Shown here: piece after piece, positions 25,544 through 47,213 of the stretch | Layout: each line of letters starts with the position of its first letter | Position numbering within the stretch: the first letter of the stretch is position 1 | Translations under genes and position numbers: made by a program | Notes under the pieces: generated by a model | Database searches by the model: none | The model's input: the letters and a program-made list of their open reading frames with translations, nothing else | What the model was told of the DNA's origin: nothing | Origin: an uncultured Verrucomicrobiae bacterium | GTDB lineage: Bacteria; Verrucomicrobiota; Verrucomicrobiia; Chthoniobacterales; UBA10450 | NCBI GenBank assembly: GCA_963772365.1 | Contig: CAVYXA010000004.1 | Span: 37,761 to 101,760 of the forward strand | Reading direction: 5' to 3' | DNA: 64,000 bases

Positions 25544-27532
25544 ATGAAACACACGTTTTTTCTTCACGCGCTCGTTGTCCTGTTTGGGATCAATTCTTCG
25601 CTCCATGCAGCGGTTAACGTCACGCAGGAGCACAACAACCTCTCGCGCGACGGCGTTTACGTCGATGCGGCCTTTACTGCATCCGCGGCCGCCAATCTGA
25701 CCCGCGACCTCAACTTCAACGGGGCGATCTCGGGCAATATGCTTTCCCAACCGCTCTACATTGAAGGCGGCCCAAATGGACCGATGGTGATTGCCGCGAC
25801 GGAATCGAACAACGTCTACGCGCTGAATGCGATTACCGGCAGCATCATTTGGCAGCGTAACCTCGGTAACCCGGCGACGAGCGGTTTGCCGTGCGGCAAC
25901 ATCAATCCCCTCGGAATCAGCGATACGCCGGCTGTCGATCTTCCGTCCCGCGCGCTCTTTCTGGACGCCATGGTCGATACCGGAACTGCCAAGAAGCATC
26001 TTATTTTCTCACTGAATGTAGACACGGGCGCGACCAATCCCGGTTGGCCAGTGGATGTGAGTGCCGCGTTTCCATCATTTGATTCTCCCCATCACAACAA
26101 TCGCGGCGCGCTCGCTGTAGTGAACGGTATCATCTACGTGCCATACTCGGGGCACTTCGGAGATTGCACTCCATACCGGGGTTGGGTCGTTGGCGTGCAG
26201 ATCGACAATCCCTCGGCTGTCTTGGCTTGGTCCACGAGCGCAAACGGTGGCGGAATCTGGGGGCATTCCGGCGTAGCCAGCGACGGCACGAATATGTTCG
26301 TCATTACCGGCAACACGATCGGCACCGGCGGAACTTATAGCCAGGGCGAATCAATCATCCGGTTACAAGCCGGGCCGGTCTTCAACAACAACACCCAGAA
26401 TTATTGGGCCCCCACTAATTGGTTCTCTCTCGACAATTCCGACTCCGATCTCGGTGGTTGCAGCGCCATGCTCCTCGATGTCCCCGGTGCGACGCCTTCC
26501 CAACTCGTCCTGGCTTTGGGCAAAGATCGTAACGCGTATCTGGTGGATCGCAATAATCTTGGCGGAATCACTTCGGCCATCGCGTCGATGAACGTCTCCA
26601 GTTCCACACTCCGCGGACAGTCTTCCTGCACCTATCACACGAGCATGGGGACATATTTCACTTTCCGCGCCGGGACAAGCAACACCCTGGTCGCTTATCG
26701 GGTCAACCCCGGCAGCCCTCCCACCATGAGCAGCGCCTGGCTGGTGACACAATCCGGTGAAGGTTCGCCGTTCGTCACTTCCACTGACGGTACGAACAAT
26801 TTCATTGTCTGGGCATGTGGCGCCGGCGGTTCGCAGCGATTGAACGGTTACAACGCCGATACCGGCGCGCTGGTTTTTGCTGGCGGCGGATCGAACGAAT
26901 TGATGAGTGGCACCCGGAAATGGAACACCGGAATCGCCGCACGTGGCCGCATTTATTATCCCGCCGACAATCGCATCTACGCCTTCAAACTGCCGGTGCC
27001 CGAGCTTCAAGTTGCTTCTGCCGTTTCACGCAAAACGCACGGCGCCGCGGGCGATTTCGATATTGAGCTTCCGCTTTCCGGCCCTCCCGGCGTCGAATGT
27101 CGCATCGGCGGCGCGACTAACGATTACCAGTTTGTCTTCACGTTCAGCAACAATGTCGAAAGCGGGAATGCTACCGTGACCAGCGGAACCGGCACAGTGT
27201 CCGGCTCACCGACATTTTCCGGAAACACCATGACCGTGAATTTGACCGGCGTGACCGACATGCAAACGATTACAGTCACTCTGAGCGGCGTAACCGATCA
27301 GTTCCTCCAGGTCTTGCCCGACACACCCGTGAGCGCAAACATGTTGATCGCCGATACCAACGGCAATGGAACCGTAAACTCCTCAGATGTCGCCCAGACC
27401 AAGGGGCAGGTTGGCCAGACGGTGACCAGCGGCAATTTCCGCACCGACGTCAACGCCAACGGTAAAATCAACTCAACTGATGCAGCGATCGTAAAATCGC
27501 ACTCGGGCGGCGCGGTCCGGGCACGGATGTAA
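25544..27532 (+). CDS. Secreted PQQ-like/BamB-like beta-propeller protein with a C-terminal SRKxHG + dockerin-like module
   Basis: Signal peptide, then propeller-type repeats (ESNNVYALNAITGSIIWQRNLG, NGYNADTGALVF, RIYYPADNRIYAF). The last ~169 aa are shared with the gene at 36327..38345 and contain two DxNxNGxxNxxD loops. Confidence 0.65.
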   Translation: MKHTFFLHALVVLFGINSSLHAAVNVTQEHNNLSRDGVYVDAAFTASAAANLTRDLNFNGAISGNMLSQPLYIEGGPNGPMVIAATESNNVYALNAITGSIIWQRNLGNPATSGLPCGNINPLGISDTPAVDLPSRALFLDAMVDTGTAKKHLIFSLNVDTGATNPGWPVDVSAAFPSFDSPHHNNRGALAVVNGIIYVPYSGHFGDCTPYRGWVVGVQIDNPSAVLAWSTSANGGGIWGHSGVASDGTNMFVITGNTIGTGGTYSQGESIIRLQAGPVFNNNTQNYWAPTNWFSLDNSDSDLGGCSAMLLDVPGATPSQLVLALGKDRNAYLVDRNNLGGITSAIASMNVSSSTLRGQSSCTYHTSMGTYFTFRAGTSNTLVAYRVNPGSPPTMSSAWLVTQSGEGSPFVTSTDGTNNFIVWACGAGGSQRLNGYNADTGALVFAGGGSNELMSGTRKWNTGIAARGRIYYPADNRIYAFKLPVPELQVASAVSRKTHGAAGDFDIELPLSGPPGVECRIGGATNDYQFVFTFSNNVESGNATVTSGTGTVSGSPTFSGNTMTVNLTGVTDMQTITVTLSGVTDQFLQVLPDTPVSANMLIADTNGNGTVNSSDVAQTKGQVGQTVTSGNFRTDVNANGKINSTDAAIVKSHSGGAVRARM

Positions 27533-28231: not shown

Positions 28232-29476
28232 CTAACGACAGACGTGCGTTTCCGGGTTCATTCGATATTTCCAGTCAGACCCGTTTGAGCCAGCTTCGCT
28301 CAAAGCGGAATCGACGAGCGAGCGATTCGCGGACAATGTGCAGACCGGATCCGTGTTGGCGGCGTTGCCGGTGAGCAACGCCGCTTGGCAACGGCAGCCA
28401 CCGAAATCGATTTCTTTTTTCGGACAACTCCGACACGGCTCCGGCATCCAATCGGTTCCGCGAAACCGGTTAAAGCTCTCCGATTCTCGCCAGATCCAAT
28501 CGAGCGACTGCTCCCGGACATTTTCGAATTGCATATCCGGAATCGCCGATGATGCCGTCGGACAGGGCGAGACGTCGCCGATCGGATTGACGGTGAGATA
28601 GCGCTGGCCCCAGCCGTTTAGGCACGGTTTCGGCCGCGTTTCGTAATAATCGGGCAGGACATAAAAGATGTCGATCTTACTGGCTAGCCGTTCTTTTGCC
28701 GCAGCCGCGATTTCACGGGCACGCTCGACTTGTTCGCGCGTCGGCAATAACGCGGCCCGATTCAAAAATGCCCAGCCGTAGAATTGCGTGTTGGCCAGCT
28801 CGACCCGATCGGCGCCGAGCTCTTCTGTCAGATCGATCATCTCTTCCAACTGATCGATGTTGTGCCGATGCAAAACGAAATTAAGGCTGAGAGAAATGCC
28901 GGCGCTGCGAATTAGCGCCGCGGCGTGGAGCTTTCGTTGATGTGCTCGCGCGCCTGCGATCTCATCGGCAAGATCGACATCGGCAGCTTGAAAACTGAGT
29001 TGCACAGAATCAAGGCCGGCGTCCCGCAATTCATTGACCCGCTTTTCATCGAGGATGATGCCGCTGGTGATCAGATTGGTGTAGAGATTGGATTCCCGAG
29101 CCGCGCGAATAATCGCGGCAAGATCGCGCCGAACCAGCGGTTCACCGCCGGAAAAGCCAACCTGCAATACGCCCAGCGCTGCCGCTTCACGAACAACGCG
29201 GAGCCATTCCTCGGTGGTCAATTCCGCATGAAGTGCTGTAGCGTGCGCTGTCCTCAGCGCATCTGTTGATGGCGCCGCTCGGCTTCCGCTGAGGAGAGCG
29301 GACGCTACACTGACCGGATTCGAGCAATACGGACAATGCAGCGGACAACGATGTGTCAGCTCCGCCAGCAATGCGTATGGACGCGGCGGCGCTGTAGGGG
29401 AAGCTGATAGCTTCCCGCGTGGCTGCGTTTTAGGGAAAGTGTCAGTTTCCCCTACAGTTTTCTTTGTCGTGCTCAT
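28232..29476 (-). CDS. pqqE: PQQ biosynthesis radical SAM/SPASM enzyme PqqE, with two repeat-derived in-frame insertions
   Basis: LLAELTHRCPLHCPYCSNP (CxxxCxxC radical SAM), GFSGGEPLVRRDL and C-terminal SPASM cysteines (CPTASS...CRSCPKKEIDFGGCRCQA). An ATGA overlap joins it to pqqD. Confidence 0.9.
   Translation of the reverse strand: MSTTKKTVGETDTFPKTQPRGKLSASPTAPPRPYALLAELTHRCPLHCPYCSNPVSVASALLSGSRAAPSTDALRTAHATALHAELTTEEWLRVVREAAALGVLQVGFSGGEPLVRRDLAAIIRAARESNLYTNLITSGIILDEKRVNELRDAGLDSVQLSFQAADVDLADEIAGARAHQRKLHAAALIRSAGISLSLNFVLHRHNIDQLEEMIDLTEELGADRVELANTQFYGWAFLNRAALLPTREQVERAREIAAAAKERLASKIDIFYVLPDYYETRPKPCLNGWGQRYLTVNPIGDVSPCPTASSAIPDMQFENVREQSLDWIWRESESFNRFRGTDWMPEPCRSCPKKEIDFGGCRCQAALLTGNAANTDPVCTLSANRSLVDSALSEAGSNGSDWKYRMNPETHVCR
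29236..29310. repeat. Family C GTAG-REP doublet (REPIN) inside pqqE
   Basis: CTGTAGCGTGCGCTGTCCTCAGCGCA...CCGCTGAGGAGAGCGGACGCTACAC spans 75 nt (25 codons). It encodes SVASALLSGSRAAPSTDALRTAHAT, directly after the radical SAM CxxxCxxC motif. Confidence 0.75.
29391..29456. repeat. Family C GTAG-REP doublet (REPIN) in the pqqE N-terminal region
   Basis: CTGTAGGGGAAGCTGATAGCTTCCC...GGGAAAGTGTCAGTTTCCCCTACAG spans 66 nt (22 codons) and encodes TVGETDTFPKTQPRGKLSASPT. Confidence 0.75.
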
Positions 29477-29757
29477 GCGAACTCGATCAATTTTCGGCGC
29501 TGAAAATCCGAGAGCGTCTCCTGAACATCTGCTGCAATTGTGGCAGGATCGACATCGTATTCTTTGGCGAGGTCGCTGATGATTTCCCCAAGTACCCGCC
29601 CATCACAACGCGCCATGATTTCGTGAGCGGTTTCGTTCAGTTCGACGATCCCCTCTGGATGAAGCAGGACAGATTTACCGCTGGCATTATCAATCTGGAA
29701 GCGAACGCCCGGCGCAAGACGTGGCCGCATGTCGTCACGAATTGTTTGCATAAGCAT
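29473..29757 (-). CDS. pqqD: PQQ biosynthesis peptide chaperone PqqD
   Basis: 94-aa version starting MLMQTIRDDMRPRLAPGVRFQ...LLHPEGIVELNETAHEIMARCDG, which is typical PqqD size and sequence. The 150-aa track ORF extends upstream into pqqC and I trimmed it. Confidence 0.8.
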   Translation of the reverse strand: MLMQTIRDDMRPRLAPGVRFQIDNASGKSVLLHPEGIVELNETAHEIMARCDGRVLGEIISDLAKEYDVDPATIAADVQETLSDFQRRKLIEFA

Positions 29758-30508
29758 GATGAATTGCGTCCAGAATCGCCCAGAGCAGATCGCATTTGAA
29801 CTGGAGCGCGCGAACGGCGGCTTCCTGTAGCTCGCGCGTGTTGCAATAACGCATGGTGATCTCGAGGGCTTCGGTCGAATCCCGCCGGGCTTGAGTAACC
29901 CGCCGCCGAAAATAATCGAGTCCACTTGTGTCGATCCACGTATAAAATTTTTCGAACGCGGCGAGACGCGTCGCCATCAAATCGGGCGCGAACAGTTCCG
30001 TGAGCGACGAGGCGATTGCGACCGGCCATGGCTCGCGTCGAGCGAAATTCACGTAGGCATCGACCGCGAACCGGACGCCGGGCAGAAGATGTCGATCCTG
30101 CAACAAATCTTCTCTCGATAATCCACACGCTTGGCCCAATCGCAGCCAGGCTTCGATCCCGCCTTCTCTGATCGGATTGTCGCCTCGGCTGTCCTGAACC
30201 GATTGCCCCTGTGATCCGCTGAGGACAGCGGACTCTACAGCGTCGATCAGCCCGTCATGATCGACAATCCGATGGACCCAGACCCGCCGCACGTCGCGCT
30301 CGGGACAATTGGAAAGAATGGCGGCGTCTTTGATCGGGATGTTGCGCTGGTAATAAAACCGGTTTGCCACCCAGCCGCGCAACGCTTCCTTCGAAAGCCG
30401 GCCCTCATTCATCGCAAGATGAAACGGATGTTTGTCGTGATAAGCGCGTCCGCCGGTCTCGCGCAGTTTCTCGATGAAAATCTCGCGATCCCAAACCGTG
30501 GCGGTCAT
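29735..30508 (-). CDS. pqqC: Pyrroloquinoline-quinone synthase PqqC, with a repeat-derived in-frame insertion
   Basis: YHDKHPFHLAMNEGRLSKEALRGWVANRFYYQ, RIVDHDG, GGIEAWLRLGQACGLSREDL and LPGVRFAVDAYVNFAR are PqqC blocks. An extra ~25 aa lie between DHDG and GGIEAWL. Confidence 0.9.
   Translation of the reverse strand: MTATVWDREIFIEKLRETGGRAYHDKHPFHLAMNEGRLSKEALRGWVANRFYYQRNIPIKDAAILSNCPERDVRRVWVHRIVDHDGLIDAVESAVLSGSQGQSVQDSRGDNPIREGGIEAWLRLGQACGLSREDLLQDRHLLPGVRFAVDAYVNFARREPWPVAIASSLTELFAPDLMATRLAAFEKFYTWIDTSGLDYFRRRVTQARRDSTEALEITMRYCNTRELQEAAVRALQFKCDLLWAILDAIHHAYANNS
30185..30240. repeat. Family C REP inside pqqC, with a degenerate inverted partner
   Basis: GATCCGCTGAGGACAGCGGACTCTACAG (30213..30240) is an intact GTAG-REP on the minus strand. 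TCGGCTGTCCTGAACCGA (30185..30202) keeps the hairpin but has lost the GTAG head. Confidence 0.65.
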
Positions 30509-31404
30509 AAAACGATTTCCATTCCATCGAATCCGATCTCAACTCCCGCCTTTTCGACTTGTTGTCGCTCCTCTGAGCCGGGCATCAGAATCGGATTGGT
30601 ATTGTTGATGTGAGTGTAAACCTTCCGGCTTGCCGACAAACTGCGCAACAAATCGAGAGACCCGTCGCGAATCGGCAAATGATGCATTTCCTGCGCGGTG
30701 CGCGCACCTGCCCGAACGGCAGATAACTCGTCGTTTGACCAAAAAGTTCCGTCGAACAGGATCACATCGGAGGCGTGGATTGCCTCGCGCAGATGATCTG
30801 TCAGTTCGCCAACCGCCGGCGCGATCACGGCACTCTTGCCGGAGTTTTCATCACGCAATTGAAAAGCAATGCTCTCGGGCAATGGAATCGCGGAAACGGA
30901 AATCTTCAGGCCGGGCAAGATTGAGCTTTGTAGGGCAACCGCTTCGGTTGCCGAGGCAGGCGGAGCGCCTGCCCTACAATTCGTGATGTCTGGGTTCAGG
31001 TCGCGCCATTCTATTCCGCAAAATTGTCTGAGCAGATTGTCGATCCAATTCAGCGCGATCCGCGTGGACCGATCGGCATAAACAAGCAACGGTTGCTCCC
31101 GTTGCCGCAGCAAAACCAGACCCAGCGCATGATCGATGTCCGCATTGGTGAGAAGAACGGCCGCGATGGGACTGTTCCGCAACGAATGGGGCCGCGGTTG
31201 CAGTTCTGGCGTGCTCTCGATTTGACGCGCCAGATCCGGTGAAGCGTTGATGAGAAACCAATGTCGATCATCGGCAGTGACGGCGACGCTCGACTGCGTC
31301 TGCGGTTGAATTTTTCCCGCGCGTGCGGCAAAGCAATTTGGACAAGCGCAATTCCATTGCGGCAGGCCGCCACCCGCCGCGCTCCCGAGAATTCGGATAC
31401 GAAT
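30505..31404 (-). CDS. pqqB: PQQ biosynthesis protein PqqB (MBL fold), probably starting at ATT, with a repeat-derived in-frame insertion
   Basis: The frame is open from the TAG at 31408..31410 and reads (V)IRIRILGSAAGGGLPQWNCACPNCFAAR...SSVAVTADDRHWFLINASPD, the canonical PqqB N-terminus. The first ATG/GTG/TTG is 74 codons later (the track ORF begins at 31182). The ATT at 31402..31404 lies 6 nt after GAGGGT. Confidence 0.8.
   Translation of the reverse strand: MRIRILGSAAGGGLPQWNCACPNCFAARAGKIQPQTQSSVAVTADDRHWFLINASPDLARQIESTPELQPRPHSLRNSPIAAVLLTNADIDHALGLVLLRQREQPLLVYADRSTRIALNWIDNLLRQFCGIEWRDLNPDITNCRAGAPPASATEAVALQSSILPGLKISVSAIPLPESIAFQLRDENSGKSAVIAPAVGELTDHLREAIHASDVILFDGTFWSNDELSAVRAGARTAQEMHHLPIRDGSLDLLRSLSASRKVYTHINNTNPILMPGSEERQQVEKAGVEIGFDGMEIVL
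30928..30979. repeat. Family C GTAG-REP doublet (REPIN) inside pqqB
   Basis: TTGTAGGGCAACCGCTTCGGTTGCC-GAG-GCAGGCGGAGCGCCTGCCCTACAA encodes NCRAGAPPASATEAVALQ. Confidence 0.75.
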
Positions 31405-31421: not shown

Positions 31422-31511
31422 TCAGACAGCAGCCGCGTAGCAGGTGCACTCGAAAAAGATCGGCACGTAGCGCGCTGCGGGTTTGATCCACTTTTTCCTG
31501 TTCGATTTCAT
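31422..31511 (-). CDS. pqqA: PQQ precursor peptide PqqA (29 aa; absent from the ORF track)
   Basis: The minus-strand ATG at 31511 is preceded by AGGAG. The translation is MKSNRKKWIKPAARYVPIFFECTCYAAAV, with the W-x-KP motif and the E-x-x-x-Y pair (ECTCY) that is cross-linked into PQQ. It sits directly upstream of pqqB. Confidence 0.8.
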   Translation of the reverse strand: MKSNRKKWIKPAARYVPIFFECTCYAAAV

Positions 31512-31530
31512 AGACGCCCTTGAGTCTCCT

Positions 31531-47054: not shown

Positions 47055-47158
47055 GCGCCGGCACCCGGAGCGGCTGCGCTACAAGAAGAAGATCCGCTGA
47101 GACAGACAGCGGACACTACAGCATCCTTACCGCTGTAGCGTGCGCTGTCCTCAGCGCA
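47055..47158. repeat. Cluster of three Family C GTAG-REP units upstream of pstS
   Basis: The cluster reads ...GCGCCGGCACCCGGAGCGGCTGCGCTACAA, then GATCCGCTGAGACAGACAGCGGACACTACAG, then CTGTAGCGTGCGCTGTCCTCAGCGCA. The last unit is identical over 26 nt to the unit at 29236..29261 in pqqE. Confidence 0.75.
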
Positions 47159-47213
47159 TTGGATCAACGCGTGGCTACATCCAAGTTCCCGCCCGGAGCA
47201 ATCGACGCCGAAA

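Follow-up and report, generated by a model that had tools for sequence, protein, structure and literature searches.

Does the short reading frame directly in front of pqqB in this stretch of DNA code for PqqA, the precursor peptide of PQQ? The window, i.e. the whole stretch of 64,000 nucleotides that was analysed, comprises positions 37761-101760 of contig 4 of a 3.35 Mb genome (6 contigs, 90% complete). On its minus strand, positions 31422-31511 read ATG AAA TCG ... GCT GTC TGA, which gives 29 codons and a TGA stop at 31424-31422. The encoded peptide is MKSNRKKWIKPAARYVPIFFECTCYAAAV, and its ATG is the sole ATG, GTG or TTG in the open frame. Reading frame and translation confirmed the 29-codon minus-strand gene that an initial annotation of this DNA had placed here. 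The W-x-KP motif and the E-C-T-C-Y core named there were both found, as W8-I-K-P11 and E21-C-T-C-Y25. From the stop codon to the first codon of pqqB (ATT, 31404-31402), which runs in the same direction, there are 17 nt, so that the earlier figure of 18 nt was essentially right.

A 29-codon ORF is by itself no evidence for a gene here, because 180 ORFs with a length of 20 aa or more overlap the surrounding 11-kb stretch of G+C-rich DNA. What places this micro-ORF far beyond chance is where it lies, which motifs it carries and that more than 100 species conserve it, with a dN/dS of 0.11. It contains the Glu-X-X-X-Tyr motif expected of a PqqA (E21-C-T-C-Y25), it carries a Trp-x-x-Pro leader at the fixed distance from the Glu (13 residues from W8 to E21), and it is a short co-directional ORF directly 5' of pqqB in a pqqBCDE cluster. 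We concluded from the sequence comparisons described below that the micro-ORF is very probably a real pqqA, the first gene of a pqqABCDE operon of a Chthoniobacterales (Ca. Udaeobacter-like) bacterium, and that it encodes the PQQ precursor peptide. Glu21 and Tyr25 are the predicted building blocks of PQQ, and Cys22-Thr23-Cys24 is the predicted linker that would be excised.

The operon claimed in the initial annotation stood up to the model searches. Behind the micro-ORF, PqqB, PqqC, PqqD and PqqE all scored above the NCBIfam equivalog cut-offs and lie in one gene string, all on the minus strand. The pqqB gene (30505-31404, 299 aa) reached 329 bits on TIGR02108 (cut-off 245), the match beginning at residue 2 and covering positions 1-297 of the profile. 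The start of pqqC (29735-30508, 257 aa; TIGR02111, 307 bits, cut-off 240) overlaps the pqqB stop by 4 nt. For the peptide chaperone gene pqqD (29473-29756, approx. 92-94 aa) the score on TIGR03859 was 72.9 bits with a cut-off of 46, and the match comprised residues 68-148 of a 150-aa frame. Its start is likely the ATG at 29756 or at 29750, and pqqD therefore overlaps the end of pqqC. The gene for the radical SAM/SPASM enzyme PqqE (28232-29476, 414 aa; TIGR02109, 512 bits, cut-off 381) in turn overlaps the pqqD stop by 4 nt. Such overlapping or close starts are typical of one operon. When compared with PqqE from M. extorquens (6C8V; E 1.8e-103), the PqqE of the window was found to keep the radical SAM motif, all cluster Cys, the SPASM cysteines and the Asp ligand. 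No extra tailoring gene was found in the operon.

To the curated family models for PqqA the peptide was invisible. PF08042 and TIGR02107, with cut-offs of 21.1 and 20 bits, did not match it at any E ≤ 10. When the whole genome was searched in six frames, PF08042 gave just one chance match of 13 bits elsewhere, and TIGR02107 did not match the window peptide either. The check with these two models, which the initial annotation had proposed, thus came out negative, with the peptide falling short of both curated cut-offs, and it cannot confirm the gene because neither model matched. This failure was not a limitation of the tool, as a Methylacidiphilum-type PqqA from a genome of the same class, used as positive control, was detected at 41 bits (PF08042) and 35 bits (TIGR02107). 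Between these extremes, a peptide of the same order with an EVSLY core scored 17 and 18.5 bits, respectively, and the ECTCY orthologue of Chthoniobacter flavus scored 17.3 bits on TIGR02107 with the whole model covered. The window peptide is thus the far end of a graded series. A curated bit cut-off is an operational threshold that derives from the seed sequences of the models and not a biochemical property.

Homology to canonical PqqA could be detected when profiles were compared with each other. In hhalign, a profile of 30 clade peptides aligned with a profile of six canonical PqqA sequences, two of which came from loci fetched here, with a probability of 92% and an E of 6.7e-7 over 22 columns. 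This alignment pairs W-x-K-P with W-x-K-P and E-x-T-x-Y with E-x-T-x-Y. The distance from Trp to Glu is 13 residues in the window peptide as well as in the canonical, Methylacidiphilum and alphaproteobacterial ones. Canonical PqqA peptides (PF08042/TIGR02107; Klebsiella, Acinetobacter, Methylorubrum, Methylacidiphilum) are likewise short (23-39 aa) and encoded directly 5' of pqqB, and they share the Trp-x-(Lys)-Pro leader, the Glu-X-X-X-Tyr with a middle Thr and a short tail after the Tyr. Unlike these, the clade peptides have a basic N-terminal extension of 5-8 residues (MxxxKKx) before the Trp, Pro-Ile-Phe-Phe before the Glu where the canonical ones have x-Gly-[FLM], Cys at +1 (canonical Val/Ile) and at +3 of the linker, and an Ala-Gly-Ala-[VI] end. 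The clade peptides make up a lineage-specific PqqA subfamily with the consensus M-x3-KK-x-W-I-K-P-x2-K-x-VPIFFECTCYAGA[VI].

The PqqA of a genome from another family of the same order (G039), MKAKRAWTAPRLKDIPVFFEVSLYAATR, is the EVSLY peptide mentioned above. It has the basic N-terminus, W-x-x-P, five residues, P-[IV]-F-F-E and Y-A-A in common with the window peptide and takes the same place 5' of pqqB, but its linker is Val-Ser-Leu instead of Cys-Thr-Cys. With its 17-18.5 bits on the curated models it is an intermediate between the canonical and the ECTCY forms. The alphaproteobacterial EINGY-type PqqA, MAWTTPTLVEICIGLEINGYLPAEF, from relatives of genome G764, also has the W-to-E spacing of the window peptide; in contrast to the latter its linker is Ile-Asn-Gly, without Cys, its N-terminus is short as in canonical PqqA, and its Glu follows Gly-Leu.

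Conservation of the micro-ORF was followed in near relatives and then in the whole family. Seven of the 40 nearest genomes have pqqB, and all seven have the micro-ORF directly 5' of it. In the six that belong to the same family (five genera and the window's own genus) the peptide reads ...VPIFFECTCYAGA[VI], and the seventh is G039. Within the family pqqB was found in 108 of 354 genomes. We took the DNA 5' of pqqB from 40 more family genomes, chosen without reference to the peptide, which made a PqqB-anchored sample of 47 loci in total. An intact micro-ORF was present in 45 of these 47, with the core ECTCY in 43 and the cores ECTFY and ECTSY in one locus each. Conservation in relatives, the lack of which would have spoken against the gene according to the initial annotation, was thus evident at both distances. 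The other counter-sign named there, a different pqqA-like ORF elsewhere, was not seen: the genome (90% complete) has one pqqB and one FFE...Y micro-ORF, and no other PqqA-like match.

Among 42 distinct DNA sequences from the PqqB-anchored loci, dS was approx. 1.0 (saturated) and dN approx. 0.11, with an overall dN/dS of 0.11. Across P-x-F-F-E-x-x-x-Y-x-x-x the pN/pS was 0.043. The W, P, F, F, E, first C, T and Y were invariant in all 42. The micro-ORF is under strong purifying selection. A scan with a DNA pattern for P-x-F-F-E-C-T-C-Y-A, with one genome per species, added at least 118 further loci. All matches listed encode a peptide of the same type, and at least approx. 100 of them show a PqqB N-terminus no more than 75 nt downstream. 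Nearly all of the matches listed come from Chthoniobacterales (Verrucomicrobiota), among them Ca. Udaeobacter MAGs as well as Chthoniobacter flavus Ellin428, a cultured strain with the orthologous operon, in which the peptide is MKNTAKKRWTKPSIKTVPIFFECTCYAAAV. Among 400 genomes sampled evenly across the phylum, pqqB outside the clade was seen only in a Methylacidiphilum-like genus, which has the canonical PqqA MNWEKPAFEEMNLCMEVTAYAFVAEN.

In a maximum-likelihood tree of PqqB the ECT[CFS]Y loci are found on one side of a branch with a support of 99/98, which fits a single origin and vertical descent. Apparent occurrences of ECTCY outside the phylum were rejected. The MAGs titled Dormiibacterota, Limnocylindria and Alphaproteobacteria turned out to be the same genomes as the family members G694, G695 and G738. 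A 4.4 kb contig labelled 'Xanthobacteraceae' (JBEVJT010000331.1; loci L015/L179) has a PqqB that groups with that of C. flavus; relatives of this MAG carry the EINGY-type pqqA. The contig is either mis-binned or a transfer. The same MAG has a second pqqB on another contig.

The two loci of the anchored sample without an intact micro-ORF belong to one genus. At the same position and with the same length they hold decayed micro-ORFs, MSKPKKRRLKPAMREVRMRFQRTCRPGAI in L155 (G483:C194) and MNKPSKRCSKTGVRRVPTFFGRTRCAGAR in L156 (G490:C47), which are without the Trp, the Glu and the Tyr, and pqqB is still open in both genomes. No intact pqqA copy was found elsewhere in these genomes, which are 77-81% complete. 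The decayed copies show what the ORF looks like without selection, and by this evidence the genus of G479, G483 and G490 looks like a case of ongoing loss of the PQQ pathway. In G479, the third genome of the genus, there was no micro-ORF match at all. Some MAGs contain two pqqA-type ORFs (L013/L085 in one MAG, L087/L089 in another, L177/L178 in G687). In G687 one pqqA-pqqB locus is of the ECTCY and the second of the ECTFY type. Such pairs could be paralogues or could stem from mixed strains in the bin.

The start of pqqB is a non-canonical ATT (31404-31402), located 6 nt after GAGGGT, and the first 74 codons of the frame include no ATG, GTG or TTG. It opens with ATT CGT ATC CGA ATT CTC GGG AGC GCG GCG GGT GGC GGC CTG CCG CAA TGG AAT TGC, which is the canonical PqqB N-terminus. 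Among the pattern-scan matches listed, at least 78 loci have a TTG one codon further 5'. At least approx. 25 of the loci listed lack a canonical start, and where the window has its ATT they likewise have ATT, or rarely ATC; loci of this kind often have TCG where others have TTG. As the ATT/ATC start recurs in this way, we regard it as a habit of the lineage and not as a lesion.

Four imperfect palindromes with arms that begin with TGTAG and end with CTACA are inserted in frame (minus strand) into pqqB (30928-30979), pqqC (30178-30239) and, twice, pqqE (29237-29309 and 29392-29457), each adding approx. 17-24 residues. A relative of the same genus is without the four inserts. A related copy was observed at window positions 47132-47159. 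One of the inserts places 23 aa after the CxxxCxxC of PqqE. Co-evolution of this insert with the Cys linker was considered and rejected, as 41 clade loci, the same-genus one included, lack it; as a palindromic DNA insert it is confined to the genome of the window. With an ATT start in pqqB and in-frame palindromes in pqqB, pqqC and pqqE, activity of the window operon is not guaranteed.

The cysteines in the linker set the peptide apart. The initial annotation had called them uncommon, and this held: both curated models miss the peptide, and the other lineages sampled show EINGY, EVTSY, EINMY or EVTAY and never Cys. Its description of E-V-T-x-Y as the usual core could not be upheld as a general rule, as the linker is lineage-specific in general. 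In 29 alphaproteobacterial genomes, sampled by PqqB and without a PqqA model, the linkers were EINGY (24), EVTSY (2) and EINMY (1). EINGY, kept in 24 of 27 loci, is thus a lineage-specific linker like ECTCY. Position +1 is Val or Ile in the other lineages sampled and Cys in the clade, +2 is Thr, Asn or Ser, and +3 is variable (Leu, Met, Ser, Ala or Gly in the other lineages; Cys, Phe or Ser in the clade). The Glu-X-X-X-Tyr motif supplies all the atoms of PQQ, with Glu and Tyr being essential, and the three linker residues are excised and contribute no atom to PQQ (PMC2294125). Because the linker is excised, and is lineage-specific elsewhere too, the cysteines are unusual but need not change the chemistry. 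With +1 otherwise Val/Ile and +3 variable, they may simply be the linker residues of this lineage.

We consider it unlikely, although not to be dismissed outright, that the two linker cysteines, of which the one at +1 is invariant and the one at +3 nearly so, are more than passive. They would then serve in Fe-S or metal ligation in PqqE or PqqB, in a Cys-x-Cys disulfide, or in a sulfur-bearing PQQ congener. A disulfide could possibly pre-organise the Glu and the Tyr, or make the cofactor synthesis redox-gated. Substrate cysteines ligate a cluster or a metal in SPASM thioether synthases. In a beta-strand both Cys would lie on one face and the Glu, the Thr and the Tyr on the other, an arrangement that would favour bidentate binding. 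The idea that the clade PqqE has lost a ligand of an auxiliary cluster and thereby freed a site for a substrate Cys was rejected, as all Cys and the Asp (the 'K-D-W' position in 6C8V) are kept. Nothing found in this analysis points to new chemistry.

Established pathway knowledge allows the steps to be laid out as they would run in this organism. PqqD would bind the basic Trp-x-Lys-Pro leader and hand the peptide to PqqE, the radical SAM/SPASM enzyme, which would cross-link Glu21 to Tyr25. Peptidases encoded elsewhere would then cut out the Glu-Tyr pair, and the Cys-Thr-Cys linker would be discarded. Candidates for this excision are encoded on contig 1, where two genes for M16 peptidases lie side by side. 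PqqB would hydroxylate the product and PqqC would close the ring and oxidise it to PQQ.

Recognisable PQQ clients are few in the genome. The search gave no methanol/ethanol-type dehydrogenase and one weak GSDH-type six-bladed protein (47.8 bits). A gene for a PQQ-type propeller lies within the window, on the plus strand at 25544-27532 and convergent with pqqE. It encodes a secreted protein of 662 aa with a dockerin tail, the main domain of which had no family match; some of its homologues gave weak PQQ-repeat Pfam matches. The best matches of its AlphaFold model (pLDDT 79.8) were the eight-bladed PQQ alcohol dehydrogenases 1YIQ, 1KB0 and 6ZCW at E of approx. 1e-12, interleaved with BamB. A homologue of the gene is convergent with pqqE within 2.5 kb in 14 of the 32 clade loci that were long enough to judge. 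On the basis of the model the 662-aa protein may be a PQQ client. It is only a candidate, because the fold alone cannot split enzymes from BamB-like scaffolds and there are many copies of the family per genome.

Other readings of the locus have to be weighed against these results. A short ORF that arose by chance, or a non-coding leader 5' of pqqB, would agree with the high frequency of short ORFs in G+C-rich DNA and with the lack of any family model that matches the peptide. The alignments refuted this reading, as frame, length and motifs are kept in more than 100 species with synonymous changes saturated and a core pN/pS of 0.04, and as the flanking non-coding DNA is far less conserved; we give it next to no weight. 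Another reading is a precursor of a different modified peptide or cofactor, e.g. one with a SPASM-made Cys-derived (thioether-type) link or a product that retains sulfur. In its favour, the repertoire of the SPASM radical SAM enzymes as a class includes Cys thioether links, the first linker Cys is invariant and the second nearly so, and canonical PQQ clients are scarce in the genome. Against such a product, PqqB, PqqC, PqqD and PqqE are all equivalog-level matches, and PqqE keeps every cluster ligand of the M. extorquens enzyme, Asp included, so that no open site is created. Moreover, the Glu and the Tyr never vary and are spaced as in canonical PqqA, two species have Phe or Ser in place of the second Cys, other lineages keep their own linkers (EINGY) equally tightly, and the operon has no extra tailoring gene. 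A different product is for these reasons improbable.

The remaining reading accepts an intact pqqA and takes the operon of the window genome to be on its way to loss and no longer making PQQ. The four in-frame palindromes in pqqB, pqqC and pqqE that are absent from the same-genus relative would fit, as would the ATT start of pqqB, the patchy presence of pqq in the family (pqqB in 108 of 354 genomes), the decayed pqqA copies in one genus and the small number of clear PQQ clients. Yet the five frames are open and the family scores stay above the cut-offs despite the inserts, the peptide retains every conserved residue, and ATT/ATC starts are found in at least approx. 25 clade loci, which makes an inactive operon very improbable.

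With the micro-ORF read as the pqqA of a complete operon, we compared it with what is on public record. In a large protein collection the C. flavus peptide and a common Udaeobacter form are labelled 'hypothetical protein' (e.g. TCO94122.1), and the window's own peptide is absent from it. What is new would be a lineage-specific ECTCY subfamily of PqqA that curated models and public annotation miss. Since both curated models miss the precursor and public records say hypothetical protein, the pqq operons of the Udaeobacter group look incomplete to pipelines. In the library searched, no paper was found that has the motif in a PQQ context, that links Udaeobacter or Chthoniobacter with PQQ synthesis, or that tests a Cys-linker PqqA biochemically. 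A survey of PQQ synthesis with Pseudomonas (proteobacterial) queries reported none in the five Verrucomicrobia examined (bioRxiv 10.1101/2024.06.04.597491). Once the subfamily is recognised, about one third of the family, going by the presence of pqqB, would be inferred to produce PQQ and not to scavenge it. Ca. Udaeobacter and its relatives rank with the most abundant bacteria in soil. The main value lies in closing an annotation gap in this ecologically dominant soil group, the system itself being well known. The clade alignment is a ready annotation profile, with which a member scored 68 bits and background no more than 15 bits. In addition, the natural Cys-x-Cys variant can be used for probing the linker tolerance of PqqE, PqqD and the excising peptidases.

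The DNA upstream of pqqA contains a purine-rich stretch (31517-31530, minus strand) with AGGAG at 31530-31526 and AAGGG at 31521-31517. The AGGAG that the initial annotation had taken as the site behind which the gene starts is present, but at 14 nt from the ATG it is far for a Shine-Dalgarno sequence and probably not the ribosome-binding site. The weaker AAGGG, 5 nt from the ATG, is better placed and seems the more plausible site. The stretch was not conserved as a Shine-Dalgarno site across the genera compared. Directly 5' of it, TTGCAG-17 nt-TATAAG (31559-31531, minus strand) forms a candidate sigma-70-type promoter of pqqA, although a consensus promoter scan did not call the element. From its position, the AGGAG would lie at or before the transcript start. 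ATTGCA...GATATAA is kept in a genome of the same genus and in two other genera. Udaeobacter-type loci have TTGACC-17-TATGA[AG] ending approx. 13 nt before the pqqA ATG, which suggests very short 5' leaders. As a whole the non-coding DNA flanking pqqA is far less conserved than the micro-ORF. Further upstream, on the opposite strand, lies a gene for a bacterial topoisomerase IB, and the listed TTG start of this divergent ORF (31566) adjoins the promoter-like element.
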